From NCBI RefSeq assembly GCF_035695185.1, contig NZ_DASSES010000105.1, positions 1,107-65,106 of the forward strand: a stretch of 64,000 bases of DNA. Direction: 5' to 3'. Positions 1-15,728 of the stretch are shown piece by piece. Origin of the DNA: Frateuria sp. GTDB taxonomy: Bacteria > Pseudomonadota > Gammaproteobacteria > Xanthomonadales > Rhodanobacteraceae. Numbering within the stretch: position 1 is the first letter of the stretch; every line of letters starts with the position of its first letter. Both the position numbers and the translations under genes were made by a program. The notes under the pieces are model-generated. The model was not told the DNA's origin, ran no database searches, and saw nothing but the letters and a program-made list of their open reading frames with translations.

Positions 1-1093
1 GATAGGCGTAACGGAGCTGTTCCAGGCGGATGTCCCGTTGGGGCGCCAGTGCGACGGCGGCCATGGTCCCCTTGTCTTCCGGCAGCAGCAGATCGCGATG
101 GATCGCATCCAGGGCGGCCGAGGAGAACTTCAGCTTGGCGAATCCGCGATACATGATCTGTGCCGAGGGAAGCATCCGGTAGGCGGCGAAGCCGTACAGG
201 CCGAGCGCGGGCAGGACGTGGGCGATGTCGCCACTCTGCAGCATCAGCAGCAGTGCGATGACGATCAGGCCGCTGTAGCCGACGGCTTCCACCAGGTACA
301 GGGGCGACTGGCTGAGGGTGTCGCTGGCGGCGAGGTGGCGCGAATACAGGCGGGAGGCGTCGTTGAATTTCTGCTGGTACGCCGTCGCCGAATGGGTGAT
401 CTTGACGTCCTTGATCCCGCCTAGCGCCTCGTTGCAGGACTGGAACCGCTGGCCGTTCGCGATCTGCCGCTCCTTGCCGATGCGCGCGAGGTGCCGGCGC
501 ACCAGCCCGTAGATCGCCCCGTACAGGAGCCCGACCACCAGCACGATCGCGAGGGCGGTGAGCGGGTTGTAGAGGAAGATCAGCAACAGCATGGCCAACA
601 CCACCGTGCCCTGGGCGATCAGTTGCGACAGCGGCTGGATCAGGTTGAACAGGAGCTGGTCGACTTCCGAGAGCACGTTCTGGCCCAGCACGGACGAGTT
701 GTGGGACAGGAAATACTCGTACGGCTGGTGCAGGTAGCGGGAAAGCAGGCGCGCACTGATGGAGTGGCGCAGCAGATGCACGAACCGGTTCACCAGGTGC
801 AGCGTGACCGCCTTGAACGCCGAAGAGGCAAGCACGATGGCGATCGAGGCAAGCCCCATGGCGGTGATGAACGCGCGCAGGTCGTGGAAGTGCAATGCAC
901 TGTAGGTTGCGTGCAGCCAGGGGTTTTCGTGGATGACGGCCGGCCGGCCCAGCACGGACAGGAACGGCATGATCGACAGGACACTCCCGGTCTCGGCCAC
1001 GGCCATCAGGATCACCAGAACCATCATCCATACGGACCTGCGCCGCTCGGGCCGCGTGAAGATGCCCCAGATTTTCTTCAGGTCACCCAGCAT
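1..1093 (-). CDS. ABC exporter with fused transmembrane and ATPase domains (PglK/MsbA-like). Only the N-terminal transmembrane part is present; the 3' end lies beyond the window edge.
   Basis: Absent from the ORF track because the window truncates it. Reverse translation from ATG 1093..1091 gives MLGDLKKIWGIFTRPERRRSVWMMVLVILMAVAETGSVLSIMPFLSVL...YEYFLSHNSSVLGQNVLSEVDQL...LYGFAAYRMLPSAQIM, an open frame down to position 1. The layout is that of a type-I exporter TMD, as in glycan/lipid flippases. Confidence 0.8.
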   Translation of the reverse strand, partial: MLGDLKKIWGIFTRPERRRSVWMMVLVILMAVAETGSVLSIMPFLSVLGRPAVIHENPWLHATYSALHFHDLRAFITAMGLASIAIVLASSAFKAVTLHLVNRFVHLLRHSISARLLSRYLHQPYEYFLSHNSSVLGQNVLSEVDQLLFNLIQPLSQLIAQGTVVLAMLLLIFLYNPLTALAIVLVVGLLYGAIYGLVRRHLARIGKERQIANGQRFQSCNEALGGIKDVKITHSATAYQQKFNDASRLYSRHLAASDTLSQSPLYLVEAVGYSGLIVIALLLMLQSGDIAHVLPALGLYGFAAYRMLPSAQIMYRGFAKLKFSSAALDAIHRDLLLPEDKGTMAAVALAPQRDIRLEQLRYAY

Positions 1094-1147
1094 GGTGCGT
1101 GCTCGTGGCGGTGGGACGGTGGCTGTCGATACCGGTTGGCCGCGCGG

Positions 1148-3112
1148 TCACTGGCTTGCCGATGCATCGAGGCCGCCGAGCTGTGCCTGGAGGCGGTGGA
1201 TCGTGTCGTCCAGCCGCCCGGCCAGGTTCAATATCTGCAGCCCGCCCAGCGCCCGCAGGGCCTCGTGCTTCTGGTCGAGCGCAATCAGCATGCGAACCAG
1301 CGTGATGCGGTAGGCGGGCTCGCTCGGGGCGGCCTCGACCGCAGCCTGCGTCATGCGCAGCCCGAGCGCGTGGTCGTCCAGGACGTTCCATGCGTAATTC
1401 CCGTAGGACGCCAGCAGCCGCGCGCTCGGATCGGGATGAGACAGCGCGGCGAGGAACGCTTCGACCATCCGGTCCTTGGGCAGGTCGCAGAGCTGCTCAC
1501 GTGCGCAGTCGGTGAGCGCGCCCAGCGAGCTTTCGTCCTGCACGCCGGGCTTCTTCGCCTTGAGCTTGGCGACCATGGAATCCCACCACGCATCCTTGAG
1601 CGGAAGGTGCATGCGGGCGTTCATGAAGATCAGCGCCTGCTGCGGCAGGATCGACGACTTGGGCAACGCCGCCGCGCGTTCAAGCGGCGCGTAGGCCAGG
1701 TGGGTGAAGCGCGAGGCCGGGTCGTAGTGCGAGTAGATGATGTAGGTGCGGCCGAGCTCGTACTGGGCACGCGGGGACTGGGGCGCACGGGCCGCAAGTT
1801 CCTTGGCCAGGTGCAGCGGATCGCCCCAGGCGATCGCGGTGGTGGCCGTCATTCCGATCCACCAGACCGCAAGGGCGGCCAGCAGCGCCCGGCGGGGCAG
1901 GGCGAACATCGGCGCATCGGTGGATCCCAATGCGGCGAGCGGCGGGACGATGGCCAGCAGGAGCCCGAAGCTGGCGAAATAGTTCCGGTGTTCGTACACC
2001 AGTTCCAGTCGGAGGATGGTCCCGGTCAGCAGGTGGCAGCCGAGGAATAGCAGGATGCCCAGGGCGACCAGCGGCCTGCGCCGCCTGAGCCACAGCGCCA
2101 GCGCAAGCAGCACGGCGAGGGCAAGCAGGCCAGCGAAGGTCGACCAGGGCTGGAACAGTCCCGAGGAGACGACGAAATCGTCGTGGTAGAACGACAGCGC
2201 CCCGGGCGTGGGCAGCAGCGTCCAGGCCACGTAGTCGCTGACGATCCTCGCCTCGCTCAGCAAACGGGTGTGCAGAGTGAAATCACGCTGGGCCCAGGTC
2301 TCGGGGCGAAGCAACCCCGGCAGCAGCCAGGCCAGCCCCGTGACAAGCGGCAAGACCAGCACGGCCAGGAACAGCCCGATCACGCGCAAGTCGCGCTTTC
2401 CCGCACGGGTGCGGAAGCCGAAGAGCACCCATTCGATGGTGGCGGCATACAGCGGCAACATGACCGCCGTTTCCTTCGCCAGCACCCCGACGGCGGTCGG
2501 AAGGACCAGGCTCGCGAGGCAGACCAGGAAATACCGGTTGGCCGGCGAGGGCCTGTCCTCCCGCGGATCGGCGAGCATGCGGCAACGGCCCTCGACATAG
2601 CCGAGCAGGCCCAGCAGCACGAACAGGTTGGCCATGCTCTCCATGCGCTGGACCACGTACAGCACGGCGGTGAGGTTGATGGGTAGCAGCAGCCAGCCTG
2701 CGGCGATCAGCGCGGCGACACGCCCGGCGGTTCCTTCATCGCCGTAGCTGGCCGGCGCTGCCAGCCGCAGGATCCGCTTGGCCAGCAGGAAAAGCACCAG
2801 GCCGTTGAGCAGGTGGATGACCAGGTTGGTCAGCTTCATCCAGTAGGGGTCCAGCCCTGAGGCCAGGTAATTGGCGGCGAAGCTCAAGGACGCGAGAGGT
2901 CGCTTGAACTCGCTGGAAGGCGAGGACAGCGCGGCGCGTGCCAGCGAGCCCAGGTCGGCGTGTTCCGGCTGTACCCCGTGGTTGTCGACGATGTTGGGGT
3001 AGTCGTCGAAGATGTAAGCGCCGGAGAGCCCGGGCCAGTACACCACGCAGGTGACGACCAGGGCGGCGAGCAACCACCACCAGCCATGGGTCCTGCGCGT
3101 GGTCTGGTTCAT
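1148..3112 (-). CDS. Polytopic membrane protein with a C-terminal TPR-like domain. TMTC/PMT-like GT-C glycosyltransferase candidate (paralog 2).
   Basis: 654-aa ORF. The N-terminus is a TM helix followed by YWPGLSGAYIFDDYPNIVDN, an acidic DD motif in the first extracytoplasmic loop as in GT-C enzymes. About 10 or more hydrophobic segments follow, then a helical-repeat C-terminal third. Its ATG overlaps the upstream paralog's stop (ATGA at 3109..3112). Confidence 0.75.
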   Translation of the reverse strand: MNQTTRRTHGWWWLLAALVVTCVVYWPGLSGAYIFDDYPNIVDNHGVQPEHADLGSLARAALSSPSSEFKRPLASLSFAANYLASGLDPYWMKLTNLVIHLLNGLVLFLLAKRILRLAAPASYGDEGTAGRVAALIAAGWLLLPINLTAVLYVVQRMESMANLFVLLGLLGYVEGRCRMLADPREDRPSPANRYFLVCLASLVLPTAVGVLAKETAVMLPLYAATIEWVLFGFRTRAGKRDLRVIGLFLAVLVLPLVTGLAWLLPGLLRPETWAQRDFTLHTRLLSEARIVSDYVAWTLLPTPGALSFYHDDFVVSSGLFQPWSTFAGLLALAVLLALALWLRRRRPLVALGILLFLGCHLLTGTILRLELVYEHRNYFASFGLLLAIVPPLAALGSTDAPMFALPRRALLAALAVWWIGMTATTAIAWGDPLHLAKELAARAPQSPRAQYELGRTYIIYSHYDPASRFTHLAYAPLERAAALPKSSILPQQALIFMNARMHLPLKDAWWDSMVAKLKAKKPGVQDESSLGALTDCAREQLCDLPKDRMVEAFLAALSHPDPSARLLASYGNYAWNVLDDHALGLRMTQAAVEAAPSEPAYRITLVRMLIALDQKHEALRALGGLQILNLAGRLDDTIHRLQAQLGGLDASASQ

Positions 3113-5187
3113 GCGGGATCTGCTCTCTTCGCTCGCTGATCAGCCATGAGTGTATTGCGAAGCCTGGCCAACTCCCTATCCCAGTAATGCTGGTGTCGCA
3201 TGACCCATGCATGGAGGCGTGGCATGCCGGCGGCAGGGGCTTCTTCCTGCTTGCGGACAAGCTCGTAATGGTCGAGATGGGCCAGCGCCTCGGCAGGGTA
3301 CCCGGCCGCGCCGAGCAGGGAGGCCTGCTGGAGGGCGGCCGTGGTGCGCGCCTGCTGGTCGAGCGCGCGGTTGAAATCCGCCAGGGCCTCGTCCGGCCTG
3401 CCCTGCATCAGGTCGATGCGCCCCTGCAGGTGGTAGATGTCCTGACGGCGCCCGGCGCTGGACATGAGTCGGGGGCTGGTGCGCGCCGTCTCCAGCAGCT
3501 TGCCGATCGCTGCCATGGTCATTTCCGGACAGGCGGGGTGTTCGGTCTGTTTCAAGGCGCGTTCGAACCAGTGCTCGAGCAGACTGCCGGGATTCCGGGT
3601 GGTGCGCAGCGCCTCTTCCGCCGCCTGCCAGGTCCCTGCACGGATGTGGCCCATCTGGCACTCCGCCCCGACCAGGTTGAAGGCCAGTTGCACCTGCTCC
3701 GGCGCAGCGGCGAGGGCCGGCCTCAAGCGCGCCGCGGCCCCGGCCGGGTTGCCCGCATTCATTTCGGCTTGCGCGGCATTGGCCTGCGCACGGGGCGAGG
3801 CCGGGTTGAGCTTCGCCCACAGCAGGGCCTGGTCGTGGGTGTTGCCCCACAAGGACGTGCGCGCCAGGGTCAGTCCGGCCAGGCCGGCGAGCAGCACGAG
3901 GGCCAGGCTGGCCTTCAGTCGACGCCGGGTTTCCGGCTGGAGGCTGTTCGGCGGCTGCCGGTTGGCGACGGCGCGGACGCCTTGCGGCACGTCGCACAGC
4001 CACAAGGCCAGCGGCCAGAACATCATTACTGCGGGAAGGTAATTGCGGTGCTCGAAGTAAAGCTCCAGCGAGATCGTGCTCGACTCGATCGCTTGCCCCA
4101 CCAGGAAGAACAGGATGGCCAGTGCGACGGCCGGCAGGCGCTTGCGCAAAACAATGGCGGCCCCTACCAGCGCGATGATCGCCACTATCGCCGGCAGCGT
4201 GCCCGGCGGCGACCAGAGGCCCGTCGAGACCACGATGTGATCGTTGAACAATCCGGGCGTGAAAGGCCGTGGCAGCCAGAGCAGCCCCAGGTAGTCGACC
4301 AGGATGCGTGGCTCGGTGAGCATGCGCTGGGCGAGCGTCCACGGACGTGTTGCGGAAATGTCGTGGGCGAGGCCGTGCCAGCCCCGGTAGATCAGGTAGA
4401 CGGCCACCAGCACGGAAGGGACCCCTGCAAACACGGCCATCAGGTGACGGAAGCGCAGCCGGGTTTCCTTCCCCGGGAGGGGGCGAACAGGCGCTACCTG
4501 GTGCAGGAACGTGAACTCGATGGCGAACGCCAGTGCCGGGAGCAGCACGCCGTTGGCCTTGCTGAGGACGGCCAGTACGGTACAGCCGCCCAACCCCGCT
4601 GCCATGTAGAGCGTTCCCGCGCGGGTATTGCCCGACTGGAACGCGCGTCGGCCCCGCAGCCATAGCAACAGGCCGGCCAGCGTCCACAGCAGCGGAAGCA
4701 TGGCCTCGCGCTGGACGATGTAGAGGGTGGTCGAAACGAAAAGGGGATGCAGCAGCCAGAACGATGCCCCGAGTACGGCGGCCCAGTCGGCGCGCATGGC
4801 AGCGCGTTTGCGCATGGCCTCGTCGGCCAGCTCGCCGGGAAGCCAGGCTTGCCCCAACTGGCGCAGCAACAGCGCGAGCAGGGCGCCGTTGAGCAGGTGC
4901 AGCAGCAGGTTGGTGCGCTTGAAGGGCCCGGGCGCGGCAGGCCAGTCGTGCGCGTCGACCAGGAACGAGAGCAGCGCGAGCGGCCGGCCGGTCGGATCGG
5001 CGGTGCCCGAGGTCACGTAGCGCCAGAACGCGGCGCCATTGTCGATGGGACCCAGCGCCCCCAGCGCGGGGAGGTTCGCGTAGTCGTCGAACAGGAAGCC
5101 GCCCTTCAATCCGGGCAGGTAGGCGAACCAGGTCAGGAGCAGGACGGCCAGCATCCCGATCCAGGGCCACCGCGAGGCTTTCGGCAT
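3109..5187 (-). CDS. Polytopic membrane protein with a C-terminal TPR-like domain. TMTC/PMT-like GT-C glycosyltransferase candidate (paralog 1).
   Basis: 692-aa ORF. The N-terminus reads WFAYLPGLKGGFLFDDYANLPAL, the same FDDY motif as the neighbour. It has many TM segments and a TPR-like tail (DIYHLQGRIDLMQGRPDEALADFNRALD). It is translationally coupled to the next gene. Confidence 0.75.
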   Translation of the reverse strand: MPKASRWPWIGMLAVLLLTWFAYLPGLKGGFLFDDYANLPALGALGPIDNGAAFWRYVTSGTADPTGRPLALLSFLVDAHDWPAAPGPFKRTNLLLHLLNGALLALLLRQLGQAWLPGELADEAMRKRAAMRADWAAVLGASFWLLHPLFVSTTLYIVQREAMLPLLWTLAGLLLWLRGRRAFQSGNTRAGTLYMAAGLGGCTVLAVLSKANGVLLPALAFAIEFTFLHQVAPVRPLPGKETRLRFRHLMAVFAGVPSVLVAVYLIYRGWHGLAHDISATRPWTLAQRMLTEPRILVDYLGLLWLPRPFTPGLFNDHIVVSTGLWSPPGTLPAIVAIIALVGAAIVLRKRLPAVALAILFFLVGQAIESSTISLELYFEHRNYLPAVMMFWPLALWLCDVPQGVRAVANRQPPNSLQPETRRRLKASLALVLLAGLAGLTLARTSLWGNTHDQALLWAKLNPASPRAQANAAQAEMNAGNPAGAAARLRPALAAAPEQVQLAFNLVGAECQMGHIRAGTWQAAEEALRTTRNPGSLLEHWFERALKQTEHPACPEMTMAAIGKLLETARTSPRLMSSAGRRQDIYHLQGRIDLMQGRPDEALADFNRALDQQARTTAALQQASLLGAAGYPAEALAHLDHYELVRKQEEAPAAGMPRLHAWVMRHQHYWDRELARLRNTLMADQRAKRADPA

Positions 5188-5195
5188 CAGCTACT

Positions 5196-5228
5196 CCAAA
5201 ACAAGAAGGGCCGCCCGTGGCGGCCCTT
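5196..5228 (-). terminator. Rho-independent terminator downstream of pilin gene 1
   Basis: The plus strand reads aagggccgcc-cgt-ggcggccctt (stem 5206..5228). On the minus strand the hairpin is followed by TTCTTGTTTTGG. It lies between the pilin stop (5249) and the next start (5187). Confidence 0.6.
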
Positions 5229-5248
5229 CGATGCAGACGTCGTGCGGA

Positions 5249-5686
5249 TTAGCGGCAGGACGAAGGCATGTACTTGGGGGACAAGGTCGTGCTCTTGCAG
5301 CGCCATTCCACGCTGCCCGGATGGGTGATCGGCGACAGCAGCAGGGTCGAGGTGGTCTTGAGGGCCTTGTTCGCCTTCGGGCCACCGTAAGCCGCCGTGA
5401 TGATACCGCCGGTGCCGACAGTCACGCTGCTGACGTACTGACCCCTGATGTCGGTGTTGGTGGCAAGACCTGCCGACCCGTTGGACTCCGGCAGCCTGCC
5501 CGTGGTGGTGTAGAACTCGCCGACGGCCGTCTTGGAGCCATCAGCCAGGGCCAGGCCCTCGGACACCTGCGAGCGGATGGTGTAGTCCTGGTAGGCCGGG
5601 ATGGCGATGGCCGCCAGGATCGCGATGATCGCGACCACGATCATCAGCTCGATCAGGGTGAAGCCCTTCTGCAGATTCTTGTTCAT
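5249..5686 (-). CDS. pilA: Type IVa major pilin (prepilin)
   Basis: MNKNLQKG|[27 protein letters not shown] is a class III signal peptide with a Gly-Phe cleavage site and Glu5. A C-terminal Cys...Cys loop is present ([15 protein letters not shown]). A good SD (AGAGGA) lies upstream. Confidence 0.95.
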
Positions 5687-5813
5687 GGTGGTTCCTCTTT
5701 GCTGGTTAGCTAACCGTTTTTGATGCCCCCTGAGCCCCGGTCCCGGATCCCCCTAGGCGGAATCGGACCCCACATGCTGCGGTCAGGAACGACCAGGAAG
5801 CTCGCGGTGTTCG

Positions 5814-5830
5814 AAGCAGTTTGCGTGCCA
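5814..5830 (-). promoter_or_regulatory. Candidate sigma-54 (-24/-12) promoter for pilin gene 1
   Basis: The minus strand reads TGGCACGCAAACTGCTT. The GG-N10-GC spacing is exact against the consensus TGGCAC-N5-TTGCW. It sits about 130 nt upstream of the pilin ATG. pilA is sigma-54/PilR dependent in Pseudomonas and relatives. Confidence 0.45.
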
Positions 5831-6021
5831 CGCCCACTGCCTCTTTATTGCCGCATAGCTGCAGGCCGGGCGATTGTGCACGTCGTCACGAATGTCTACA
5901 ACCTGTGTTCCAGCCGTGGAGCCCGGTTGGGGAAGCGTGATCCCTGCAACATCCTGCCGGCATGCCGCAAGGGGGCAGCTACTGCCCAAGTTTGTCAGTG
6001 CCGCCCCAATAAGGCCGTGCG

Positions 6022-6462
6022 TCAGCGGCAGGTCGAGGGCAGGTACTTGTCGGGCAGCGTCGTGCTGGAACCGTTGCAGGTCCATGCGATGCTGCCGCTG
6101 TGGGTAATCGGCGAAAGGGCGAGCGTGACGTCGTGGATCTGGACGTTCGCCTTCGGGCCCTTGAAGGCGACCAGGACCTTGCCGCCCGACACGTCCACGC
6201 TCGAGACATAGCTGCCCTTGATATCGTTGGCGTCGGCCAGTCCGGCGGACTGGTTGTTGGAGGGAAAGTGACCGTTGTTCGACACGTAGTCCCACACGGC
6301 CGCCTTGGCGCCAGTCGACAGACTCATGCCTTCGATGACCTGGCCGCGTATGGCGTAATCCTGGTAGGCAGGGATGGCGATGGCCGCCAGGATGGCGATG
6401 ATCGCCACCACGATCATCAGTTCGATAAGCGTGAAGCCCTTACTGGCGTACTTGGCGCACAT
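6022..6462 (-). CDS. Type IVa pilin paralog (prepilin)
   Basis: MCAKYASKG|[27 protein letters not shown]. The N-terminal helix and its DNA are nearly identical to pilin 1, while the C-terminal globular part diverges and carries the Cys loop CNGSSTTLPDKYLPSTC. No obvious SD lies upstream. Confidence 0.9.
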   Translation of the reverse strand: MCAKYASKGFTLIELMIVVAIIAILAAIAIPAYQDYAIRGQVIEGMSLSTGAKAAVWDYVSNNGHFPSNNQSAGLADANDIKGSYVSSVDVSGGKVLVAFKGPKANVQIHDVTLALSPITHSGSIAWTCNGSSTTLPDKYLPSTCR

Positions 6463-6558
6463 GGGAAGGTCCGGTTAGGTAAATGGCATGGGTAGGCAAG
6501 CACGTCCCGTACCGTCCAGGTCGGTTTTTAACGCCACATCTTGCCCGCGTGATGAGGG

Positions 6559-7920
6559 TCACACCGGATCCATTCCGCTTGGGCGGGGTGGCAAGGCACG
6601 CCGGGTCGCGACCCAGTGCGCCACTCGCTGTAGCGCGTGCCACGCGAGCAGAATTTCCTGGCCGCGGAACGGAATTGAATACCGGGGTTCTGCTTGCAGG
6701 GTCGAATAGAGCAGGGTGACGTACAAGAACAGCAGGCCGGCGATCGGCGCAATGTGGGCATTCGGCGCCCGCCACAACACCCCAATGCAGCCCGCGAAGG
6801 CCAGCAGCATCAGCAGCGGATTGAACCCATGGCAAACCGAGACCCACGCGCGTAGCAGTAGTTCCTGGTCGAGGGGGGAGTGGATCGTGGGGTAGACGTA
6901 GATATCGCCCTGTCCCATGCGGATGCTCCAGCCCCAGAGTAAGGCTGGTTTGCTTATGTACCACGCGAGGTAATGAAGAGGGGCGGCGGCCATGCGTTTG
7001 GCCATGAGACGAATCCCGCCGCGCGGATGGCTCAACATCACCCTCGATTCGGCTCCTATCGCATGCAGCGTGCGGGCAGCCTCGGGATTGCCTTGTACTG
7101 ACTGTAGGTACGCAGCGTGGTATTCGGGCCACGACCCCTGGACCAGATTGAGTAATGCTCGCCCGCTCGACGAAGCACCGGAAGTCAGCTGGGCATTGCG
7201 CACGCCCCAGGCAAGCGGCAAGACAAGGGCGCTTATGGCAAGTATGACCGCGAGGCGCGGTGGGACGCGGCGTCTGAGGTAGAGGACGGCGGCGAGCAGC
7301 GCGGCGAAAGGAACGAGGACCGCGTTGGTCAGCGACGACATGCCGAAAATAAGTCCCGCTGCCGCGGTCCACGCCGCCTTTCCGCGTGCGAAAGCCTCGC
7401 GTGCGAGGTACAACGCCACAGCGCACAGAAAGCCAAAAAGTGTCTCGGTAAGCAGGAAACTGTCGATAGTGATGCTATGAGGCCAGGCCGCCATGAGCAG
7501 GCCGGCGCCGATCAACCACTTGTCGGGAATCCAGCCACGCGCGGCCAGCATCGAGAACGTAACGGTAAGCGAACCGAGCAAGGCCTGCGCCAGTAGCACC
7601 GCTGCGTACCAGCGGGGAAAGCTGTCGAACAGCTTCATCCAGAACGCGAGGAAAATGGGATAACCGGGATCCCTGAAGCTGTCGCCGACCACCTGCCCGC
7701 TGCCTGGGCCGGCCTTGGAGAAGACGCCGTGGTGGACGAGGTTCCAAGCATATGCATGATACTGGACAGCGTCGCCACGCACCGGTTGGTAGACTTGGGC
7801 GTGGCACAGGTAGTACCAACGCAGCCCGAAGGCCGTGACCGTAATTGCGGTGAGTACGAATATCCACGGCAATCGCCCAAACTTCCCATTGCTTGGGACG
7901 GTTCTTGCCTCAAGTTCCAT
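6559..7920 (-). CDS. ArnT/PMT_2-like (GT39/GT83-type) polytopic membrane glycosyltransferase candidate
   Basis: 453-aa ORF, MELEARTVPSNGKFGRLPWIFVLTAITVTAFGLRWYYL...PVRGDAVQYHAYAWNLVHHGVF. About 11 hydrophobic segments and no soluble domain. The first-loop acidic/aromatic motif resembles the ArnT/PMT_2 family. G+C is lower than in the flanks. Confidence 0.6.
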   Translation of the reverse strand: MELEARTVPSNGKFGRLPWIFVLTAITVTAFGLRWYYLCHAQVYQPVRGDAVQYHAYAWNLVHHGVFSKAGPGSGQVVGDSFRDPGYPIFLAFWMKLFDSFPRWYAAVLLAQALLGSLTVTFSMLAARGWIPDKWLIGAGLLMAAWPHSITIDSFLLTETLFGFLCAVALYLAREAFARGKAAWTAAAGLIFGMSSLTNAVLVPFAALLAAVLYLRRRVPPRLAVILAISALVLPLAWGVRNAQLTSGASSSGRALLNLVQGSWPEYHAAYLQSVQGNPEAARTLHAIGAESRVMLSHPRGGIRLMAKRMAAAPLHYLAWYISKPALLWGWSIRMGQGDIYVYPTIHSPLDQELLLRAWVSVCHGFNPLLMLLAFAGCIGVLWRAPNAHIAPIAGLLFLYVTLLYSTLQAEPRYSIPFRGQEILLAWHALQRVAHWVATRRALPPRPSGMDPV

Positions 7921-8052
7921 CGACCTTCCCCCCTAACTTGGCTGGTCGGAAGATACGCGCTCCGCCTTCGGTTGACGAGGACGCGACCTGGCTTGCGCCG
8001 GCGCGGTGACACCGCGTACCGTCACCGGCTACGTCAGCGTTCGAGGGAACCC

Positions 8053-10143
8053 ATGAAAGCTTTGCTCGCAGCACTTGCCGTGGCTCTGGTTTCGATGCCG
8101 GCCGTGGCGGTCGACCTGGAAACCCATACCCCCCACCCGTTCAACGTGCGCGACCTGGTGATGATGGACCGGGTCAGCGACCCGCAGCTGTCGCCCGACG
8201 GCCGTTACGCCGCGTTCGGCGTGCGCAGCACCGACTACGCCGCCAACAAGGGCGTCAATGCGATCTACGTGCTGGACCTGAAGAAGGGCGGCGACCCGGT
8301 GAAGGTGGTGGAGAAGGGCGGTTCGGCGCGCTGGGCGCCCGACGGGCACGCGCTCTATTACGTGGCCCCGGCCGATGGCGTGGCGCAGTTGTGGCGGGTG
8401 GACCTGGGCAGCGGCGGCAGCCTGGACCTGGCCGGGCACCCGGCCGCGGTGCAGGTCAGCCACGGCGTGCTTGACCTGGGTGGCTACAAGCTCTCGCCGG
8501 ACGGCAAGAGCGCGCTGCTCTCCTACGAGGTCTACACCGATTGCGCGGACCTGGCCTGCACCAAGGAGCGCATCGATGGCCGCGAGAAGAACAAGGCGAC
8601 CGGCACGGTCTACCACAAGCTGTTCGTGCGCCACTGGGACACCTGGGCCAATGGCCGCCGCAACCAGCTGTTCGTCGCCCGCTTCGACGGCCAGGGCATG
8701 CTGCCGGCCGAGCCGACCCTGCTCAGCCGCGGCATCGACGGCGACATCCCGAGCAAGCCTTTCGGGGATGAAAGCGAGTTCGCGTTCTCGCCCGACGGCC
8801 GCACGGTCTACTTCGACGTGCGCATCGCCGGCACCAGCGAGCCCTGGTCGACCAACTTCGACCTCTACCGCGTGCCGGCCGACGGCTCGGCCGCGCCGCA
8901 GAACCTGACCGCGGCGAACAAGGCCTGGGACGCCTATCCGGTGCCCTCGCCGGACGGCCGTACGCTCTACTACCTGGCGATGAAGGAACCTGGCTTCGAG
9001 GCCGACCGCTTCGCCATCATGGCGATGGACCTGCAGAGCGGATCGACGCGCGAGATCGATCCGCAGTGGGACCGTTCACCGGGCGCGCTCACCATCGCGC
9101 AGGACGGCAAGACCCTCTATGCCACCGCCGACGACGAAGGCCAGCACCCGCTGTTCGCCATCGATGCCGCCAGCGGCAAGGTCACCAAGCTGGTCGGCGA
9201 CGGTGCGGTGGGCGGCTACTCGCTCCAGGACGGCAAGCTGCTGCTGGCGCGCGATGATCTCAGGCACCCGGTCGACCTGTACCTGGCCAATGCCCGTGGC
9301 CGCGGCCTGAAGCAGGTCACCCACTTCAACGCCGAGCGGCTGAAGAACGCGAAGACTGGTGATTTCGAGTTCTTCACCTTCAAGGGCTGGAACAACGACA
9401 CGGTGCAGGGTTACGTGGTCAAGCCGGTCGGCTACAAGCGCGGCCAGAAGTACCCGGTCGCCTTCATCATCCACGGTGGTCCGCAGGGCGCGATGACCAA
9501 CGACTGGAGCTACCGCTGGAACCCGCAGACCTACGCGGGCCAGGGCTTCGCGGTGGTGACCATCAACTTCCATGGCTCGACCGGATACGGCCAGGCCTTC
9601 ACCGACTCGATCTCTGGCGACTGGGGCGGCAAGCCGCTGGAGGATCTCAAGGCCGGCTGGAAAGCCGCGCTGGACAAGTACAGCTTCCTCGACGGCGACA
9701 ATGCCTGCGCGCTGGGCGCCAGCTACGGCGGCTACATGACCTACTGGATCGCCGGCGTGTGGAACCAGCCCTGGAAGTGCCTGGTCGACCACGACGGCGT
9801 GTTCGACGCACGCATGATGTACTACGCCACCGAGGAGCTCTGGTTCGAGGAGAAGGAGAACGGCGGCACGCAGTTCGATCATCCGGAAAACTACGAGCGC
9901 TTCAACCCGATCGACCACGTCAAGGACTGGCGCGTGCCGATGCTGGTGGTGCACAGCGGGAACGATTTCCGCATCCCCATCACCCAGGGCCTGGGCGCGT
10001 TCACCGCGCTGCAGCGCCGCGGGATTCCCAGCGAGTTCCTCACTTTCCCGGAAGAGAACCACTGGGTGCTCAAGCCGCAGAACAGCGTGATGTGGCATGA
10101 GACGGTGAATGCGTGGTTGAAGCGGTGGACGTCCAGGCACTGA
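8053..10143 (+). CDS. S9 family serine peptidase (prolyl oligopeptidase/acylaminoacyl-peptidase type), secreted
   Basis: The true start is at ATG 8053 (MKALLAALAVALVSMPAVA, a signal peptide) inside track ORF 7729..10143. A beta-propeller region is followed by GASYGGYM (GxSxGG nucleophile elbow), HSGNDFRIP and ENHWV (Asp/His). Confidence 0.9.
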   Translation: MKALLAALAVALVSMPAVAVDLETHTPHPFNVRDLVMMDRVSDPQLSPDGRYAAFGVRSTDYAANKGVNAIYVLDLKKGGDPVKVVEKGGSARWAPDGHALYYVAPADGVAQLWRVDLGSGGSLDLAGHPAAVQVSHGVLDLGGYKLSPDGKSALLSYEVYTDCADLACTKERIDGREKNKATGTVYHKLFVRHWDTWANGRRNQLFVARFDGQGMLPAEPTLLSRGIDGDIPSKPFGDESEFAFSPDGRTVYFDVRIAGTSEPWSTNFDLYRVPADGSAAPQNLTAANKAWDAYPVPSPDGRTLYYLAMKEPGFEADRFAIMAMDLQSGSTREIDPQWDRSPGALTIAQDGKTLYATADDEGQHPLFAIDAASGKVTKLVGDGAVGGYSLQDGKLLLARDDLRHPVDLYLANARGRGLKQVTHFNAERLKNAKTGDFEFFTFKGWNNDTVQGYVVKPVGYKRGQKYPVAFIIHGGPQGAMTNDWSYRWNPQTYAGQGFAVVTINFHGSTGYGQAFTDSISGDWGGKPLEDLKAGWKAALDKYSFLDGDNACALGASYGGYMTYWIAGVWNQPWKCLVDHDGVFDARMMYYATEELWFEEKENGGTQFDHPENYERFNPIDHVKDWRVPMLVVHSGNDFRIPITQGLGAFTALQRRGIPSEFLTFPEENHWVLKPQNSVMWHETVNAWLKRWTSRH

Positions 10144-10150
10144 AGAGCAC

Positions 10151-10235
10151 CCCCCCAGCCCTCCCCTGCAAGCAGGGGAGGGAGTACGTGACTTGGCCCA
10201 TCCCCGCATTTGCCTCCCCTGCAAGCAGGGGCGGG
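10151..10235. repeat. Two REP-like type-A hairpins (CCCTCCCCTGCAAGCAGGGGAGGG)
   Basis: A perfect palindrome lies at 10159..10182 and a variant at 10212..10235. The same 24-mer recurs at 14109..14132 and three times in 15799..15901. Confidence 0.85.
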
Positions 10236-10271
10236 AGTACGTGGTGACCAGCTTCGGCCTGCCGGAGGTTG

Positions 10272-10311
10272 CTCCTCCCCCTGCTCGCAGGGGGAGGTTG
10301 GGAGGGGGTAG
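10272..10311 (+). repeat. REP-like type-B element ending in GTAG
   Basis: ctcctccccctgctcgcagggggaggttgggagggggtag. Related copies lie at 10725..10760, 14171..14210 and 15729..15766. A terminal GTAG is characteristic of REP/SMAG-type elements. Confidence 0.75.
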
Positions 10312-10328
10312 CTTTTCCTCTCCCCAGG

Positions 10329-10682
10329 ATGTGGAAGTCGGGCGTGGAGCTCAGATGGGAACGTGCGCGCAAGTTGCGCAACCATGCCACCGATGCCGAG
10401 CGCCGCTTGTGGCATTACCTGCGGCGCGAGCAACTGGCTGGCTGGAAGTTCCGCCGCCAGTATCCGGTCGCCAGGTTCATCGTGGATTTCGCCTGCGTGC
10501 CTCCCCGCCTGGCCATCGAGCTCGATGGCGGACAACACGCCGACAAGTGCCGCTACGACGCCAGCCGCACCCGCCTGATCGAGGCCGAGGGCTATCGGGT
10601 GTTGCGCTTCTGGAACGACGACGTGCTGTTGCGGGTGGATACCGTGCTGGAGGAGATCCTGCGGTATCTCGGCGAGGTGTAA
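10329..10682 (+). CDS. DUF559 (Vsr/restriction-endonuclease-like) domain protein
   Basis: MWKSGVELRWERARKLRNHATDAERRLWHYLRREQLAGWKFRRQYPVARFIVDFACVPPRLAIELDGGQHAD...YRVLRFWNDDV is the typical DUF559 signature (D...ELDG). The track ORF start at 10269 reads through the REP element, so ATG 10329 is preferred. Confidence 0.85.
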   Translation: MWKSGVELRWERARKLRNHATDAERRLWHYLRREQLAGWKFRRQYPVARFIVDFACVPPRLAIELDGGQHADKCRYDASRTRLIEAEGYRVLRFWNDDVLLRVDTVLEEILRYLGEV

Positions 10683-10724
10683 CCGAGGCTCCAAAGGGGA
10701 GGTCGTTCACTCGTCTGGCTTCCG

Positions 10725-10760
10725 GCTCCTCCGCCTGTTTGCAGGCAGGGTGAGAGGGTA
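10725..10760 (+). repeat. REP-like type-B element (variant)
   Basis: gctcctccgcctgtttgcaggcagggtgagagggta has the same architecture and orientation as 10272..10311. It lies immediately downstream of the DUF559 gene. Confidence 0.65.
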
Positions 10761-10764
10761 TGCC

Positions 10765-11784
10765 CTACAGCCACTTCACCCGCTTGAGCCAGGTGTAGAT
10801 GCCCCCCACCACACCCGCCACCACCACGATCACCAGCGGATACGCCCAGGGCCGGTCCAGCTCGGGCATGTGGGTGAAGTTCATGCCGTACCAGCTGGTG
10901 ATCAGCGTGGGTGCGGCCAGCAGCGCGGCGTAGCCTGCCAGGCGCTTCATCACCTCGTTCTGCCCGAAGGTGACCAGCGAAAGGTTCACGTTGATCGCCG
11001 CAGCGAGCATCTCGCGCATGGCGGCGATCGATTCATTGACGCGGAACACATGGTCGTAGACGTCGCGGAAGTAGGGGCGCAGGTCGTCCGGGATCAGCTG
11101 CGGGTGCATGCGCACCAGCTGGTTGGTGATGTCCTGCAGAGGCGCGACGGCCAGGCGCAAGGTGGTCAGGTCGCGTTGCATGTCGTACAGCCGGCGCACC
11201 GTGCTGCGCTTGAAGGTCTCGGCGAAGATGTCCGCCTCGAGCCGGTGCAGCTCCTCACGGAAGTCGCGGACGATCGGCAACATGTTGTCGACGATGAAGT
11301 CCAGCACGCCGTACAGCCCGTAGCTGGGACCGTTGCGCATCAGCTCGTGTGCCTGCTCGCAGCTGCGCCGCGCCGGCGCGTAGGACAGCGAGGCGCCGTG
11401 GCGGACGGTCACCAGGTAGCGCTCGCCGAAGAAGATCTGCGTCTCGCCGAAGGCCAGGTTGCCGTCGACCACCTGCGCCGTCTGCACCACCAGGAACAGC
11501 GAGTCGCCATAGGCCTCCAGCTTGGTGCGCTGGTGTGCCTTGTGCGCGTCCTCCACGGCCAGGTCGTGCAGGTCGAACTCCTCCTGCAGCTTCAGCAGCA
11601 AGGGGGCGTCCGGCTCGTGCAGGCCGACCCAAACGAAGGTGCCGGGCTCCCGCAGGACGTCGCTGATCGCGTCAAGGCTGACGTCGCCGATGCGGGTGCC
11701 GTCGCCACGGTAGGCGATGCAGTTGACGACCATGCCGTTGGCCGGTGTCGGCGAGTCCGGTCCGTGCGAGCTGGCGGATGTCAT
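10765..11784 (-). CDS. corA: Magnesium/cobalt transporter CorA
   Basis: Start at ATG 11784 (MTSASSHGPDSPTPANGMVVNCIAYRGDG...) inside track ORF 10765..12054. The C-terminus has two TM helices and the WYGMNF (GMN) motif. Confidence 0.9.
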   Translation of the reverse strand: MTSASSHGPDSPTPANGMVVNCIAYRGDGTRIGDVSLDAISDVLREPGTFVWVGLHEPDAPLLLKLQEEFDLHDLAVEDAHKAHQRTKLEAYGDSLFLVVQTAQVVDGNLAFGETQIFFGERYLVTVRHGASLSYAPARRSCEQAHELMRNGPSYGLYGVLDFIVDNMLPIVRDFREELHRLEADIFAETFKRSTVRRLYDMQRDLTTLRLAVAPLQDITNQLVRMHPQLIPDDLRPYFRDVYDHVFRVNESIAAMREMLAAAINVNLSLVTFGQNEVMKRLAGYAALLAAPTLITSWYGMNFTHMPELDRPWAYPLVIVVVAGVVGGIYTWLKRVKWL

Positions 11785-11893
11785 CGGCGCATGATGCGCG
11801 GCAGCCGGGCGCGAGGCAATCGGTAGCAGGAGCGCACCGTCTGCGCGACCGGCATGGCTCGCGCGCAGCCCGCGGTCGCGCTCCGGTGCGTGT

Positions 11894-13168
11894 CTACAGG
11901 GAATGCCTCGCGCGCATGCCCCAGGCCAGCGCCAGCCACACCGGCATCGCGAACAGCAGCCAGGGCTGGTTCTGTTGCACGGTGCCGGGGAGCAGGTGCA
12001 GCAGCACCGCGGCCAGCAGGGCGAACAGCTGCAGCAGGAGCACGGCATCGGCAAGGCGCGAGGCGGGCAACCGGCGCCTGGCGCGCCACGCGGAGGGAAG
12101 CAGCGCGAGCGCGAGCGGATTGAACAAGAGCAGGTTGGCGTTGGCCCAGGCGGCGTGGTGGGTTGTCAGCAGCCACAGGATGAGCAGGCCGATGCCGGCC
12201 AGTCCCGCGAACAGCAGGTAGAAGCTGCCGAGGAGGGCGAAGCCGCTGGGCCAGAAGCGGCGGGCGAGCAGCAATACCGCAGCCGCGGCCAGCCCGGCCA
12301 GGGCGAGCGGAAGGCGCAGGTCGGGAGGCGTGGCCGGGGGCGTTTCCAGGCGGTTGGGCGAGACCAGCTCGGTGCCGGTCACCAGGGGATGCATGCCCTG
12401 CGGGCCGGCCACGCGTGCGGTCGACAGTTCCCGCGCCAGCACGGCGGGCAGGAAGCTCTCCTGCCATGCGTCGAGCGGCTGGTCCGCGTAGGGTCCCAGC
12501 CCGAGGTCGAGCAGCAGCATCAGCCACGGCTGCGCGCTCATCAGGCGGACGGTCTGCTGGCGGTAGGTCATGCCGCCCGGGCGGGCGGTGAGCTGGGCCT
12601 GGAGCACCCCGCCGAGCGCGCGGTCCAGTGCGTCGCGCACGCGCGTGGTGCAGTTGTCGACGTAGTAGTCGTAATCGTAGCGCGCGTTTTCCGGGCGCAG
12701 GTTCCACAGCAGGAAGTCGCGCAGTGCGGCGGCCTGTGCCGGCGTGAAATCGAGCCGTTGGCGGGTGACGGAACGGCCGGCCTGGATGTACCAGTCCTCG
12801 TCCAGCGTCGCGGGCGCGGCATCCATCAGGTAGTGCATGCGCCCGCGCGCAAAGTTGAGCAGGAACCCGCGCTCGTCGAAGTCGAACACGCCGTAGTTGA
12901 AGTTGTAGGCCTCGCCACTGACCGTGTCGCGCACCTCGATGGCGTCGTGGCCGAACCGTTCCCAGTAGGTCTCGCCGGGTCCGTAGGTGATCAGCGAGAC
13001 CTCGAGGTTTGCCCCCGGGGCATTGGCGACGCCGGCGTGGGCGCGCGGGACCAGGACGAGCGCGAGGAGCAGGCAAAGCCAGGCGCGCCCCAGGCAGGAG
13101 CGCACCTTGTGTGCGACGGGGCTGGCGGGACGATGGCGGCCACCGCGCACGAGGTGTGCTTCAGGCAT
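11894..13168 (-). CDS. DUF4105 (Lnb N-terminal periplasmic domain) membrane protein
   Basis: Signal/TM segment followed by LITYGPGETYWERFGHDAIEV...NFNYGVFDF...ARYDYDYYVDNCTTRVRDALD, the DUF4105 signature as I recall it. The C-terminal third has 4-5 TM helices. The start overlaps the corC stop by 8 nt. Confidence 0.8.
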   Translation of the reverse strand: MPEAHLVRGGRHRPASPVAHKVRSCLGRAWLCLLLALVLVPRAHAGVANAPGANLEVSLITYGPGETYWERFGHDAIEVRDTVSGEAYNFNYGVFDFDERGFLLNFARGRMHYLMDAAPATLDEDWYIQAGRSVTRQRLDFTPAQAAALRDFLLWNLRPENARYDYDYYVDNCTTRVRDALDRALGGVLQAQLTARPGGMTYRQQTVRLMSAQPWLMLLLDLGLGPYADQPLDAWQESFLPAVLARELSTARVAGPQGMHPLVTGTELVSPNRLETPPATPPDLRLPLALAGLAAAAVLLLARRFWPSGFALLGSFYLLFAGLAGIGLLILWLLTTHHAAWANANLLLFNPLALALLPSAWRARRRLPASRLADAVLLLQLFALLAAVLLHLLPGTVQQNQPWLLFAMPVWLALAWGMRARHSL

Positions 13169-14015
13169 CGAGCGCCTGCCGGGTCACGTGGAACTGCTGC
13201 ACGCGTCGGTCGTCGGCTTCGGTGACGATGAACAGGTAGCCGCCGAACACCACTTCCTCGCCCGCCTCGGGCAGGTGGCCGAACTCGGCGGTCGCCATGC
13301 CGCCCACGGTGTCGAACTCCTCGTCGGAGAAGGTCGCGCCGGTCTGCTCGTTGAAGTCGGCGATGGGGGTCAGCGCGCTGACCATCCAGCCGCCGCCGGG
13401 CAGTTCGTGCATCAGGCTCGGCTCGTCCTCGTCGTCGTGCTCGTCGTCGATTTCGCCGACGATCTGCTCCAGCACATCCTCGATGGTGATCAGGCCGGCA
13501 ACGCCGCCGTACTCGTCCACCACCAGCGCCATGTGGTTGCGCGAGCGGCGGAATTCCGCCAGCAGCACGTTCAGGCGCATCGATTCGGGAATCAGGACCG
13601 CCGGGCGCAGCAACAGGCCCAGGTCGAAGCCCTCGCCGTCGCCGAAATACTTGAGCAGGTCCTTGGCCAGCAGGATCCCGACGATCTCGTCCTTGTCCTC
13701 GCCATGCACGGGAAAGCGCGAGTGGCCCGATTCGACCACCTTGGCGAGGATTTCCGGCAGCGAGGCATCCGCCGCGATCATCACGATCTGCGCGCGCGGG
13801 ACCATGACGTCGTCCACGCTGAGCTCGGTGACCTTGAGCGCACCCTCCACCATGGTGAGGGTGTCGTTGGACAACAGGCCGTTGGCCTGGGCGGCGCGCA
13901 ATTCCTCGATCAGTTCGTCGCGGTTGCGCGGTTCGCCGGAAAACAGGTGGCCCAGACGATCCCACCAGGAGCGGTGGGGGGCCGGGCCGTTGGTACTGCC
14001 AGGGTCGTCGTTCAT
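13161..14015 (-). CDS. corC: CBS-pair/CorC_HlyC domain protein (magnesium/cobalt efflux-related CorC/YbeX)
   Basis: MNDDPGST...WWDRLGHLFSGEPRNRDELIEELR, then a CBS pair and a C-terminal transporter-associated domain. It sits in conserved synteny after ybeY. Confidence 0.9.
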   Translation of the reverse strand: MNDDPGSTNGPAPHRSWWDRLGHLFSGEPRNRDELIEELRAAQANGLLSNDTLTMVEGALKVTELSVDDVMVPRAQIVMIAADASLPEILAKVVESGHSRFPVHGEDKDEIVGILLAKDLLKYFGDGEGFDLGLLLRPAVLIPESMRLNVLLAEFRRSRNHMALVVDEYGGVAGLITIEDVLEQIVGEIDDEHDDEDEPSLMHELPGGGWMVSALTPIADFNEQTGATFSDEEFDTVGGMATAEFGHLPEAGEEVVFGGYLFIVTEADDRRVQQFHVTRQALDA

Positions 14016-14100
14016 CAACTCGGGAGGGAGCGCCCCGTGGAAGGGCGGAAAGCCGGAGTCTAACGGAAAAAACGTGGAGATTCAGGGCACAAGCGGGTCT

Positions 14101-14210
14101 CTCCCCAGCCCTCCCCTGCAAGCAGGGGAGGGCGCCGATGCAAGCGGGGGCGATCGCGCAAGGTGCCGGGCTCCTCCCCCTGCCTGCAGCGGGAGGCCGG
14201 GAAGGGGTAG
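14101..14210. repeat. REP-like pair: type-A hairpin plus type-B element ending in GTAG
   Basis: Type A lies at 14109..14132 (ccctcccctgcaagcaggggaggg). Type B lies at 14171..14210 (ctcctccccctgcctgcagcgggaggccgggaaggggtag). Both are in the corC-ybeY spacer. Confidence 0.8.
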
Positions 14211-14213
14211 TTC

Positions 14214-14708
14214 TCAGGCGTAGGGATCGGCGATGCCCAGCCCGGCCAGGATGCGCCGTTCCAGCGCTTCCATCGCCTCGGCGTCGGCCTCCTCGATATG
14301 GTCATAGCCAAGCAGGTGCAGCGTGCCGTGCACGGTCAGGTGCGCCCAGTGGTCGCGTGGCTTCTTGCCCTGTTCGGCCGCTTCGCGGGCGACCACCGGC
14401 GCGCAGATGGCCAGATCGCCGATCAGCGGCAGGTCGACGCCAGGCGGCAGCTCGGCAGGAAAGGAAAGCACGTTGGTGGCGTAGTCCTTGCCGCGGTAGT
14501 CGCGGTTGAGCGCCCGGCCTTCCTCGGCGTCGACGATACGGACGGCGACCTCGGCCGGCTTGCGCCGCCGGGCTCCCCGCAGCGCCGCCGCCACCCACTG
14601 GCGGAAGCTGGCCGGTGCGGGCACGCCTGTGCGGGGGACCGCATAGCTCACGGCAGTCTGGGGAGCGGGCGGCGTTTCCGCCTGGGCGCGCCGGGCCTTG
14701 CCAGTCAC
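14214..14708 (-). CDS. ybeY: rRNA maturation endoribonuclease YbeY
   Basis: [15 protein letters not shown] zinc-binding motif. The GTG start overlaps the phoH stop (GTGA). Confidence 0.92.
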
Positions 14709-15712: not shown

Positions 15713-15728
15713 GGGGCTCCGTGAGTTG

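Follow-up and report, generated by a model that had tools for sequence, protein, structure and literature searches.

The question raised by the locus described here is why two type IV pilin genes should lie among the genes of three glycosyltransferase-like membrane proteins and an ABC exporter. The locus occupies one end of a stretch of 64,000 nucleotides from Frateuria sp. (contig NZ_DASSES010000105.1), which was analysed as a whole and is referred to below as the window. A preliminary description of this DNA had proposed a candidate pilin glycosylation locus, and the proposal has gained from the conserved linkage to pilins in relatives, from the predicted GT-C/TPR fold of one of the membrane proteins and from the genes of glycan assembly that lie downstream in relatives. 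A role in pilin glycosylation appears well supported by comparative genomics and fold prediction. More specifically, the locus may represent the end nearest pilA of an island for the O-glycosylation of type IV pilins, bounded by an S9 peptidase gene on one side and, by analogy, by pilB-pilC on the other; we give this reading a probability of roughly 60%.

All six genes are on the minus strand, and the open reading frame (ORF) listing confirmed this arrangement in every coordinate. In the direction of transcription they encode a putative membrane glycosyltransferase of 453 aa, ArnT/GT39 (PMT_2)-like by the annotation of its homologs and lacking a TPR domain (6559-7920), pilin 2 (146 aa, 6022-6462), pilin 1 (145 aa, 5249-5686), two paralogous membrane proteins, here called A (692 aa, 3109-5187) and B (654 aa, 1148-3112), and the N-terminal transmembrane half of an ABC exporter of the fused type, cut by the window edge after 364 aa (2-1093). 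Gene A begins 61 nt past pilin 1 and shares 4 nt (3109-3112) with gene B, the stop codon of A overlapping the start codon of B. Both pilins belong to type IVa, having a short leader that ends in G, FTLIELM with Glu5, a globular domain and a C-terminal disulfide loop; they match the Pfam families Pilin (E 7e-24 for pilin 1, 2e-22 for pilin 2) and N_methyl (E 1e-10 and 8e-10). Pilin 1, of the major-pilin type, carries the leader MNKNLQKG followed by FTLIELM, a C-terminal loop between C129 and C144 and a good ribosome-binding site (AGAGGA). Pilin 2 is a paralog with a weak ribosome-binding site.

A scan of one genome per species returned at least 537 relatives, and the 80 best were examined; all of them are B orthologs (52-69% identity), from Rhodanobacter, Dyella, Frateuria, Fulvimonas, Luteibacter, Oleiagrimonas, Luteimonas, Dokdonella, Solimonas, Stenotrophobium and Nevskiaceae. 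The recurring gene order is an S9 peptidase gene on the opposite strand, an optional GT39-like gene, one to three pilins, a GT-C/TPR gene at the place of A (position A below), B, a variable glycan cluster, and pilB with pilC. Pilins lie at most 4.5 kb upstream of B in 63 of the 67 loci that have enough flank, from about 60 species, and the pilin-A-B arrangement is far beyond chance. The linkage to pilins, for which the preliminary description had asked a comparative check, is thus conserved. Tandem pilins like those of the window are typical and were found in most related loci, and the gene at position A shares 4 nt with B in 24 of 51 loci and 1 nt in four more. Adjacency of a pilin and a GT-C/TPR gene was also encountered outside this set, in loci reached by a homolog search seeded with the low-GC representative P0349. 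In Acinetobacter proteolyticus (L085), a pilin is followed by a 643-aa GT-C/TPR protein, 33% identical to A end to end (E 2e-98), and then by GT2, a fused ABC exporter, GT4, an FkbM methyltransferase, GT4, ManC and GT4. In Methylomonas sp. LL1 (L086), the order is a pilin, a 635-aa GT-C/TPR protein, Wzm, Wzt with a Wzt_C domain and a nucleotidyltransferase, with a TagF-like gene further on. The last locus also contains, within 7479-17908, genes of a phosphomutase and a racemase, and with its TagF-like glycerophosphotransferase it resembles a teichoic-acid-like or capped-polymer pathway located beside a pilin.

The usual pilus neighbours had been reported as absent from this context. pilB and pilC were indeed not found by tblastn anywhere in the 64 kb; this is probably a window-edge effect, because in relatives pilB-pilC come after the glycan cluster, and in the window they probably lie just beyond coordinate 1. 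By tblastn, pilB is present within the flanks of 18 related loci, in 17 of them downstream of the glycan cluster and in one (L036) upstream and divergent. A Pfam census of 114 genes downstream of B likewise yielded T2SSE proteins that represent PilB (T2SSE with MshEN), followed by PilC (T2SSF). The island of the relatives is therefore located inside the classical pilA...pilB-pilC locus.

Position A and B differ in the way they vary among loci. Position A is polymorphic: 46 genes are of the A type, two further types of about 645-650 aa comprise nine and seven genes, and others were missed by the motif search, while B forms a single cluster. Similarities of the adjacent pilin and of the position-A protein are strongly correlated in 59 loci (Spearman rho, used for all pairs, 0.82; 0.81 as a partial correlation controlling for B; Mantel permutation p 0.001), and in the same loci those of pilin and B are not (rho 0.20, partial -0.12). 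With respect to the S9 flank, compared in 47 loci, the highest value is that of B (rho 0.48), followed by the position-A protein (0.17) and the pilin (0.12). Such tight co-variation suggests that the pilin and the position-A enzyme form an exchangeable cassette, as with the pilin/accessory-gene groups of P. aeruginosa, and B, which tracks the S9 flank and not the pilin, appears to be a vertically inherited core gene. In two loci (L034 and L040) A is missing and B comes straight after a single pilin. An extra pilin is situated between the position-A gene and B in L016, L026, L047 and L080, and directly after B in L057 (Luteimonas), so that the boundary of the cassette is not fixed.

Proteins A and B share 34% identity across 472 residues in their N-terminal parts (E 1e-35). 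Their family profiles were aligned by hhalign with probability 100 via the membrane domain only (columns 16-446). The preliminary description had seen in both an FDDY motif directly after the first transmembrane segment (TM1) and a TPR-like C-terminus. The motif holds for both proteins (residues 33-36 of A and 35-38 of B), its DD being invariant across the two families, as are R-P, K, H, Y-x-x-Q-R, K, E, E-x-x-x-E-H-R-N-Y and D-Y-x6-P-x-P. The C-terminus holds fully for A, where the TPR domain (residues 450-688) was detected by Pfam (TPR_14, E 2e-5), by profile search against consensus TPR proteins of the PDB (E 1e-13) and by Foldseek; for B it holds in part, as its helical C-terminal domain of about 200 aa shows a single TPR unit (about residues 434-467), detected in 8 of 12 orthologs. 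The AlphaFold2 model of A, built with 35 homologs, has pLDDT 84 and pTM 0.84 and contains about 11 membrane helices up to residue 447, followed by 14 paired TPR-type helices, the topology being taken from the model. TPR proteins (PilF, OGT, consensus TPR) dominate the Foldseek matches of full-length A, with STT3 behind them, and for this reason the putative GT-C membrane domain (residues 1-448) was also modelled alone (pLDDT 81.5, pTM 0.88). Its first seven matches in the PDB are all STT3 (human, canine and yeast STT3B/STT3A/Stt3), ArnT (5f15) or Pmt1-Pmt2 (6p25), with probability 0.89-1.00 and TM-scores of 0.32-0.43; later matches have probability 0.30 or less, most below 0.17. The structure prediction for which the preliminary description had called thus favours a GT-C fold for A. 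Searches of A and B against PDB sequences with phmmer and with profiles returned TPR proteins only.

A has thousands of homologs, with a concentration in Rhodanobacteraceae. A hidden Markov model search of the full library retrieved 6,144 cluster representatives at E <= 1e-30, of which the best 150 are all full-length (630-710 aa), and many homologs are labelled 'protein O-mannosyl-transferase' by JGI. Two other identities were considered and rejected: an O-antigen polymerase or ligase, given that Pfam found no Wzy_C (O-antigen ligase) domain in A, B or the 453-aa protein and that the fold matches GT-C, and PilY-type factors, to which there is no similarity.

The Ser/Thr-rich C-terminal loops of the pilins had been suggested as acceptor sites, and both loop sequences, one of which is CNGSSTTLPDKYLPSTC, were read as first written. 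Another candidate is Ser63 of pilin 1, within NGSAGLA, with a Ser of pilin 2, within NQSAGLA, at the same aligned position; the column holds Ser in 87 of 133 linked pilins. We take this position to be that of the known glycosylated Ser63 of Neisseria PilE. Because of this correspondence, its conservation among linked pilins and its place beside the sites of another glycosylated pilin, Ser63 would be a more likely acceptor than the loops. The sites in question are Thr64 and Thr66, the main ones in the pilin modified by TfpW, which Ser63 adjoins (bioRxiv 10.1101/2020.04.19.049825).

The pilin genes and the GT39-like gene had also been described as low in G+C, as expected for an exchanged locus. 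The lower G+C is real (0.62-0.635 versus 0.691 across the window), but exchange is indicated by codon usage for the GT39-like gene only. In the pilins it arises at codon position 1, from amino-acid composition, and G+C at the third codon position (GC3) is native (0.87-0.90), which rules out a foreign origin on these grounds. The GT39-like gene alone has lowered GC3 (0.73 versus 0.85-0.91 in its neighbours), suggesting a more recent, horizontal acquisition.

This gene is accessory and variably present, occurring at the matching position in about 13 of the 80 scanned loci. Its 453-aa product is 100% identical to a hypothetical protein from a metagenome-assembled genome of Frateuria sp., which agrees with the Frateuria origin of the window. 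It has no Pfam match at E <= 0.01, a weak NCBIfam match to WsfD (E 0.005) and no match in a search against PDB sequences; many of its homologs (48-70% identity) carry PF13231 (PMT_2) and are named as ArnT family or GT39. In Dyella telluris the gene lies between the S9 peptidase gene and a pilin. In Rhodanobacter denitrificans the genes before it are GT2, a methyltransferase and a GtrA-like gene, and those after it are two pilins, A and B. Since the latter layout is that of a Gtr-type three-component system (undecaprenyl-phosphate-sugar synthase, flippase and GT-C transferase), the GT39-like enzyme might add a single side sugar. In the window it stands alone, with no GT2 or GtrA gene adjacent, which sets it apart from the GtrA/GtrB/GtrC and ArnT systems that it otherwise resembles in its homologs (PMT_2) and, in R. 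denitrificans, in the preceding GT2 and GtrA-like genes.

The exporter fragment matches Pfam ABC_membrane (E 7e-16). Its best NCBIfam model is PglK, with 120 bits against a cut-off of 1000 and only 364 aa inside the window. Orthologs with 63-75% identity are located directly after B in nine loci and a few kb downstream in two more; that of L025 (71% identical) is a 600-aa fused protein of transmembrane and nucleotide-binding domains. The window exporter is also 41% identical to the exporter of the Acinetobacter pilin locus. Judging from annotated examples and the Pfam census, the clusters downstream of B contain GT2 and GT1/GT4 genes, Wzx-type flippases, methyltransferases, DegT aminotransferases, enzymes of GDP-mannose and dTDP-sugar synthesis, sugar dehydratases and UDP-galactopyranose mutase, or the fused ABC exporter. 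The fully annotated cluster of Fulvimonas (L005) encodes Wzx, an unknown protein, a methyltransferase, two GT4 and one GT2, followed by pilB. Many glycan genes of this cluster (11947-18382) and of others downstream of B are lower in G+C and GC3 than the flanks and were missed by a GC3-based gene caller, which is consistent with horizontally exchanged glycan cassettes. In Rhodanobacter terrae (L003), 4716-5593, a nucleotidyltransferase/HepT-like toxin-antitoxin pair and an Acyl_transf_3-SGNH acyltransferase are situated between the S9 peptidase gene and the pilins. This acyltransferase might O-acetylate the glycan; one of the same kind is present in L001, outside the island and beyond CorA.

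Between pilin 1 and A there is a hairpin resembling an intrinsic terminator (5205-5229, minus strand), with an 11-bp stem of which nine pairs are G-C, followed by TTGTTTTGG; its folding energy is -29.8 kcal/mol (z -3.35), and a GGAG ribosome-binding site and the ATG of A come after it. A strict rule finds the same GAAGGGCCGC...GCGGCCCTTC hairpin with a T-run at the pilin/A junction of 39 of 60 related loci, and visual inspection adds further cases. Terminators between pilA and an accessory gene are a conserved means of keeping accessory expression low (PMC11841053). About 130 nt upstream of pilin 1, a candidate sigma-54 promoter, TGGCACGCAAACTGCT (5815-5830, minus strand), was recognised by consensus match only, with one mismatch to TGGCAY-N5-TTGCW; it is one of four sites with no more than one mismatch in 64 kb. 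The overall count of pattern hits equals chance, so the site is only a lead. A sigma-70 scan found no promoter, and Rfam gave nothing meaningful within 1-12 kb.

That TPR-bearing GT-C enzymes beside pilins were an undescribed system, as the preliminary description held, is an overstatement of novelty, because TfpW has this architecture and position. TfpW is the GT-C pilin arabinofuranosyltransferase/oligosaccharyltransferase of P. aeruginosa group IV strains (Pa5196, PA7), with main sites at Thr64 and Thr66 (bioRxiv 10.1101/2020.04.19.049825). It is a GT-C enzyme of 646 aa with 11 predicted transmembrane segments, N-in orientation, an essential DDX in periplasmic loop 1 and a large periplasmic TPR domain at the C-terminus (bioRxiv 10.1101/2020.04.19.049825). 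The gene lies directly downstream of pilA, the best structural template of the protein is ArnT, and homologs occur beside pilA in several genera (Villela et al., bioRxiv 10.1101/2020.04.19.049825). Protein A is alike in its size, its predicted N-in polytopic GT-C domain with ArnT among the fold matches, DD in the first periplasmic loop, periplasmic TPR and gene position after a pilin, and the placement immediately downstream of a pilin extends to Acinetobacter and Methylomonas. The present loci differ from TfpW, a single enzyme, in having two paralogous enzymes, of which one co-varies with the pilin and the other is conserved. They also differ in their neighbours, which are of the GT2/GT4/Wzx/ABC oligosaccharide type and not genes of D-arabinofuranose (D-Araf) synthesis (DprE1/DprE2/DPPR synthase/GtrA). 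TfpW draws on D-Araf carried by polyprenyl phosphate and requires the DprE1, DprE2 and DPPR-synthase genes. The DprE1, DprE2 and DPPR-synthase families were absent from the annotated flanks and from the 25 commonest families downstream of B, the rest of the genomes not having been searched; in P. aeruginosa the D-Araf genes are unlinked to tfpW (bioRxiv 10.1101/2020.04.19.049825). No TfpX-like gene was noticed after A/B, although no search was aimed at TfpX.

TfpO/PilO, PglL, PglS and TfpM, all of the Wzy_C type, also transfer lipid-linked glycans to Ser/Thr of pilins in the periplasm, and tfpO directly follows pilA, behind a terminator, in a variable pilin cassette (bioRxiv 10.1101/2020.04.19.049825; PMC11841053). 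Unlike these enzymes, A and B have no Wzy_C domain, the predicted fold of A matches STT3, ArnT and PMT but not WaaL, and a TPR domain is present. An en-bloc role with relaxed glycan specificity, as in the Wzy_C-type enzymes, would nevertheless suit a conserved B beside varying clusters. The eukaryotic protein O-mannosyltransferases TMTC1-4 and PMT, GT-C enzymes of GT105/GT39, share with A and B a GT-C domain at the N-terminus whose loop 1 bears an acidic motif and, in the case of TMTC, the C-terminal TPR repeats; Pmt1-Pmt2, a heterodimer of paralogs, is among the fold matches of A (6p25_B). The differences are the lack of Pfam PMT, PMT_2 and DUF1736 matches in A and B, the lack of a MIR domain and the bacterial periplasmic setting. 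The cyanobacterial Ogt beside pilA was rejected as a precedent, being a cytoplasmic, unrelated GT41 enzyme.

Taken as a pilin O-glycosylation island, the locus might operate as follows. Strong transcription of the pilins would be followed, past the conserved terminator after pilin 1, by partial read-through into the translationally coupled A and B. The variable downstream cluster (GT2, GT4 and sugar-modifying enzymes) would assemble in the cytoplasm a lipid-linked glycan that the fused ABC exporter, or Wzx or Wzm/Wzt in other strains, would carry to the periplasmic face. A and B presumably share the build of TfpW, with a polytopic GT-C domain of N-in orientation, an Asp-Asp motif that follows TM1 on the periplasmic side, and a helical/TPR C-terminus in the periplasm. 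One or both would then transfer sugar to Ser/Thr of the membrane-anchored pilin, most likely to Ser63 of the alpha-beta loop, before assembly, with the TPR domain possibly holding the pilin. A would be the pilin-cognate partner, exchanged together with the pilin, and B the conserved partner, the two acting as a heterodimer or sequentially, and the GT39-like enzyme may decorate the glycan or the pilin with one sugar drawn from an undecaprenyl-phosphate donor. The catalytic steps, the lipid form of the donor, the acceptor site and the A-B interaction are all proposed here by inference.

Several points weigh against this reading. The A/B family is known from sequences and predicted structures alone, and neither A nor B has a glycosyltransferase match (PMT, PMT_2, STT3 and similar) in Pfam or NCBIfam at E <= 0.01. 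The Foldseek E-values of the membrane domain of A are weak, the best being 4.7e-3 at a TM-score of 0.43, and because they are modest the GT-C fold of A is graded as supported rather than proven. The C-terminal domains of the A and B families could not be aligned by profile-profile comparison. TfpW was compared by its published description and not by sequence, and its proline motif YX6PFX7P had no exact match, by regular expression, in A, B, 144 locus proteins or the 150 best library representatives. In TfpW this motif lies in periplasmic loop 4; a related D-Y-x6-P-x-P, invariant in A and B, lies possibly but not necessarily in the equivalent loop. Given a TfpW-like design but neither the exact motif nor a sequence comparison, A and B may be said to work like TfpW, with membership in its family unproven. 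As to the donor, the glycan genes of the window's own island lie outside the window, and no initiating phosphoglycosyltransferase was found in L005, the sole fully annotated cluster, so that the donor pathway is incomplete as read; the glycan may be built on undecaprenyl monophosphate from GT2 or primed elsewhere. Finally, three contigs of metagenome-assembled genomes (L043, L063 and L075) carry B without a pilin or A, and B may therefore serve another acceptor. The neighbours of B in these contigs include a 2OG-Fe(II) oxygenase (L043 and L075), an H+-pyrophosphatase (L063) and an Asp-tRNA synthetase (L075), with an ABC exporter in L043 and a GT4 gene in L063 also nearby.

The last of these points bears on the strongest alternative, namely that A and/or B are general periplasmic glycosyltransferases of proteins or envelope glycans, either TMTC/PMT-like or modifying lipopolysaccharide or exopolysaccharide, in a shared hypervariable surface-antigen island, and that pilin is not their substrate, or not the main one. 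Besides the pilin-less copies of B and the glycan or ABC genes beside two of them, this would account for a B that follows the housekeeping flank and not the pilin, for a very large family (6,144 representatives) with many 'protein O-mannosyl-transferase' labels, and for the resemblance of the downstream clusters to O-antigen-unit clusters. We consider it unlikely, if well worth keeping in mind: it is opposed by the pilins upstream of B in 63 of 67 loci, the tight co-variation of the position-A gene with the pilin, the recurrence of pilin-GT-C/TPR adjacency in Acinetobacter and Methylomonas, the place of the island inside the pilA...pilB-pilC locus and the precedent of TfpW.

The same B copies would also fit a division in which only A is a pilin glycosyltransferase, TfpW-like, acting with single sugars or processively from a polyprenyl-monophosphate sugar, and B and the cluster belong to an abutting O-antigen or capsule pathway. 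Co-variation with the pilin is indeed seen for A but not for B, and a single GT-C/TPR gene follows the pilin in Acinetobacter and Methylomonas. Moreover, GT-C enzymes of the PMT, ArnT and TMTC types use monophosphate single-sugar donors. Such a division appears rather improbable, since the genes of A and B share 4 or 1 nt in 28 of 51 loci, an arrangement that suggests coupling of their expression, since a pilin directly precedes B with no A in L034 and L040, and since even the single-enzyme loci of Acinetobacter and Methylomonas carry an exporter and a glycosyltransferase cluster right after the enzyme. That A and B are non-enzymatic factors of pilus assembly or stability, like TfpY/TfpZ or the TPR lipoprotein of the PilF type, binding the pilin via TPR, would agree with the PilF-like TPR domains seen by Foldseek and with known non-enzymatic accessory genes after pilA (PMC11841053), but is very improbable in view of the GT-C fold matches, the linkage to genes of glycan synthesis and export, and the invariant acidic and basic residues common to both families in periplasmic loops.

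Within the preferred reading as a pilin O-glycosylation island, a bolder version may tentatively be put forward, though it is doubtful as yet. A and B might constitute a third class of pilin O-oligosaccharyltransferase, a GT-C/TPR heterodimer comparable to Pmt1-Pmt2, in which A would recognise the acceptor and B would accept any lipid-linked oligosaccharide or polymer supplied by the swappable cluster. The glycan, which might be started by the conserved GT2 and grow on undecaprenyl monophosphate in the manner of the archaeal AglJ/AglB pathways, would be transferred en bloc to Ser63.

On the far side, the island of the window ends at the S9 prolyl-oligopeptidase-family gene (8047-10143, plus strand; Pfam Peptidase_S9, E 1e-59), a housekeeping boundary outside the system that also marks the island boundary in most related loci. 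The flank within the window comprises this peptidase, DUF559, CorA, Lnb, CorC, YbeY, PhoH, MiaB, RsmI and a GGDEF protein, and the same housekeeping flank is found in relatives. The peptidase ORF opens at 7729, inside the GT39-like gene, and the likely start is the ATG at 8047 (MKALLAALAV..., signal-peptide-like); mechanically called ORFs overshoot the likely genes at 7729-10143 (plus strand) and 10765-12054 (minus strand). At 429 aa the CorA ORF, which overlaps that of Lnb, exceeds the 329-340 aa seen in relatives. The small DUF559/REase-like ORF between the S9 peptidase gene and CorA (10269-10682, plus strand; Pfam E 6e-40) is absent from the matching place in the annotated relatives L001, L003, L004 and L088, L003 having a Y1 transposase near the boundary. 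The sole tRNA call in the window is a tRNA-Ala(GGC) at 55958-56047 (minus strand), which at 90 nt is unusually long for a bacterial tRNA-Ala.

The glycosylation of pilins influences how the pilus functions, how the immune system recognises it and how well cells resist pilus-specific phages, and the enzymes responsible are used for glycoconjugate vaccines. To our knowledge, the O-transferases known for pilins are almost all of the Wzy_C type, and for the GT-C/TPR type there is one known system, that of P. aeruginosa, tied to one unusual sugar. The locus of Frateuria is best described as a widespread TfpW-like island that combines two enzymes with a swappable glycan cluster and is set within the pilA-pilB locus. 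Together with about 60 relatives, it suggests that GT-C/TPR enzymes are present in the pilA-pilB locus of many environmental Gammaproteobacteria, beside highly variable glycan clusters. If so, the substrate range of TfpW-like enzymes would be wider, the paired paralogs would offer a natural system for the study of acceptor versus donor specificity in GT-C enzymes, and cultured, tractable carriers (Frateuria, Rhodanobacter, Dyella and Fulvimonas) would be at hand. Should A and B in addition form a third class of pilin oligosaccharyltransferase, TfpW-type enzymes would extend from arabinofuranose to a general and widespread diversification of pilin glycans, spanning Xanthomonadales (Rhodanobacteraceae, Luteimonas and Dokdonella), Nevskiales, Acinetobacter and methanotrophs.

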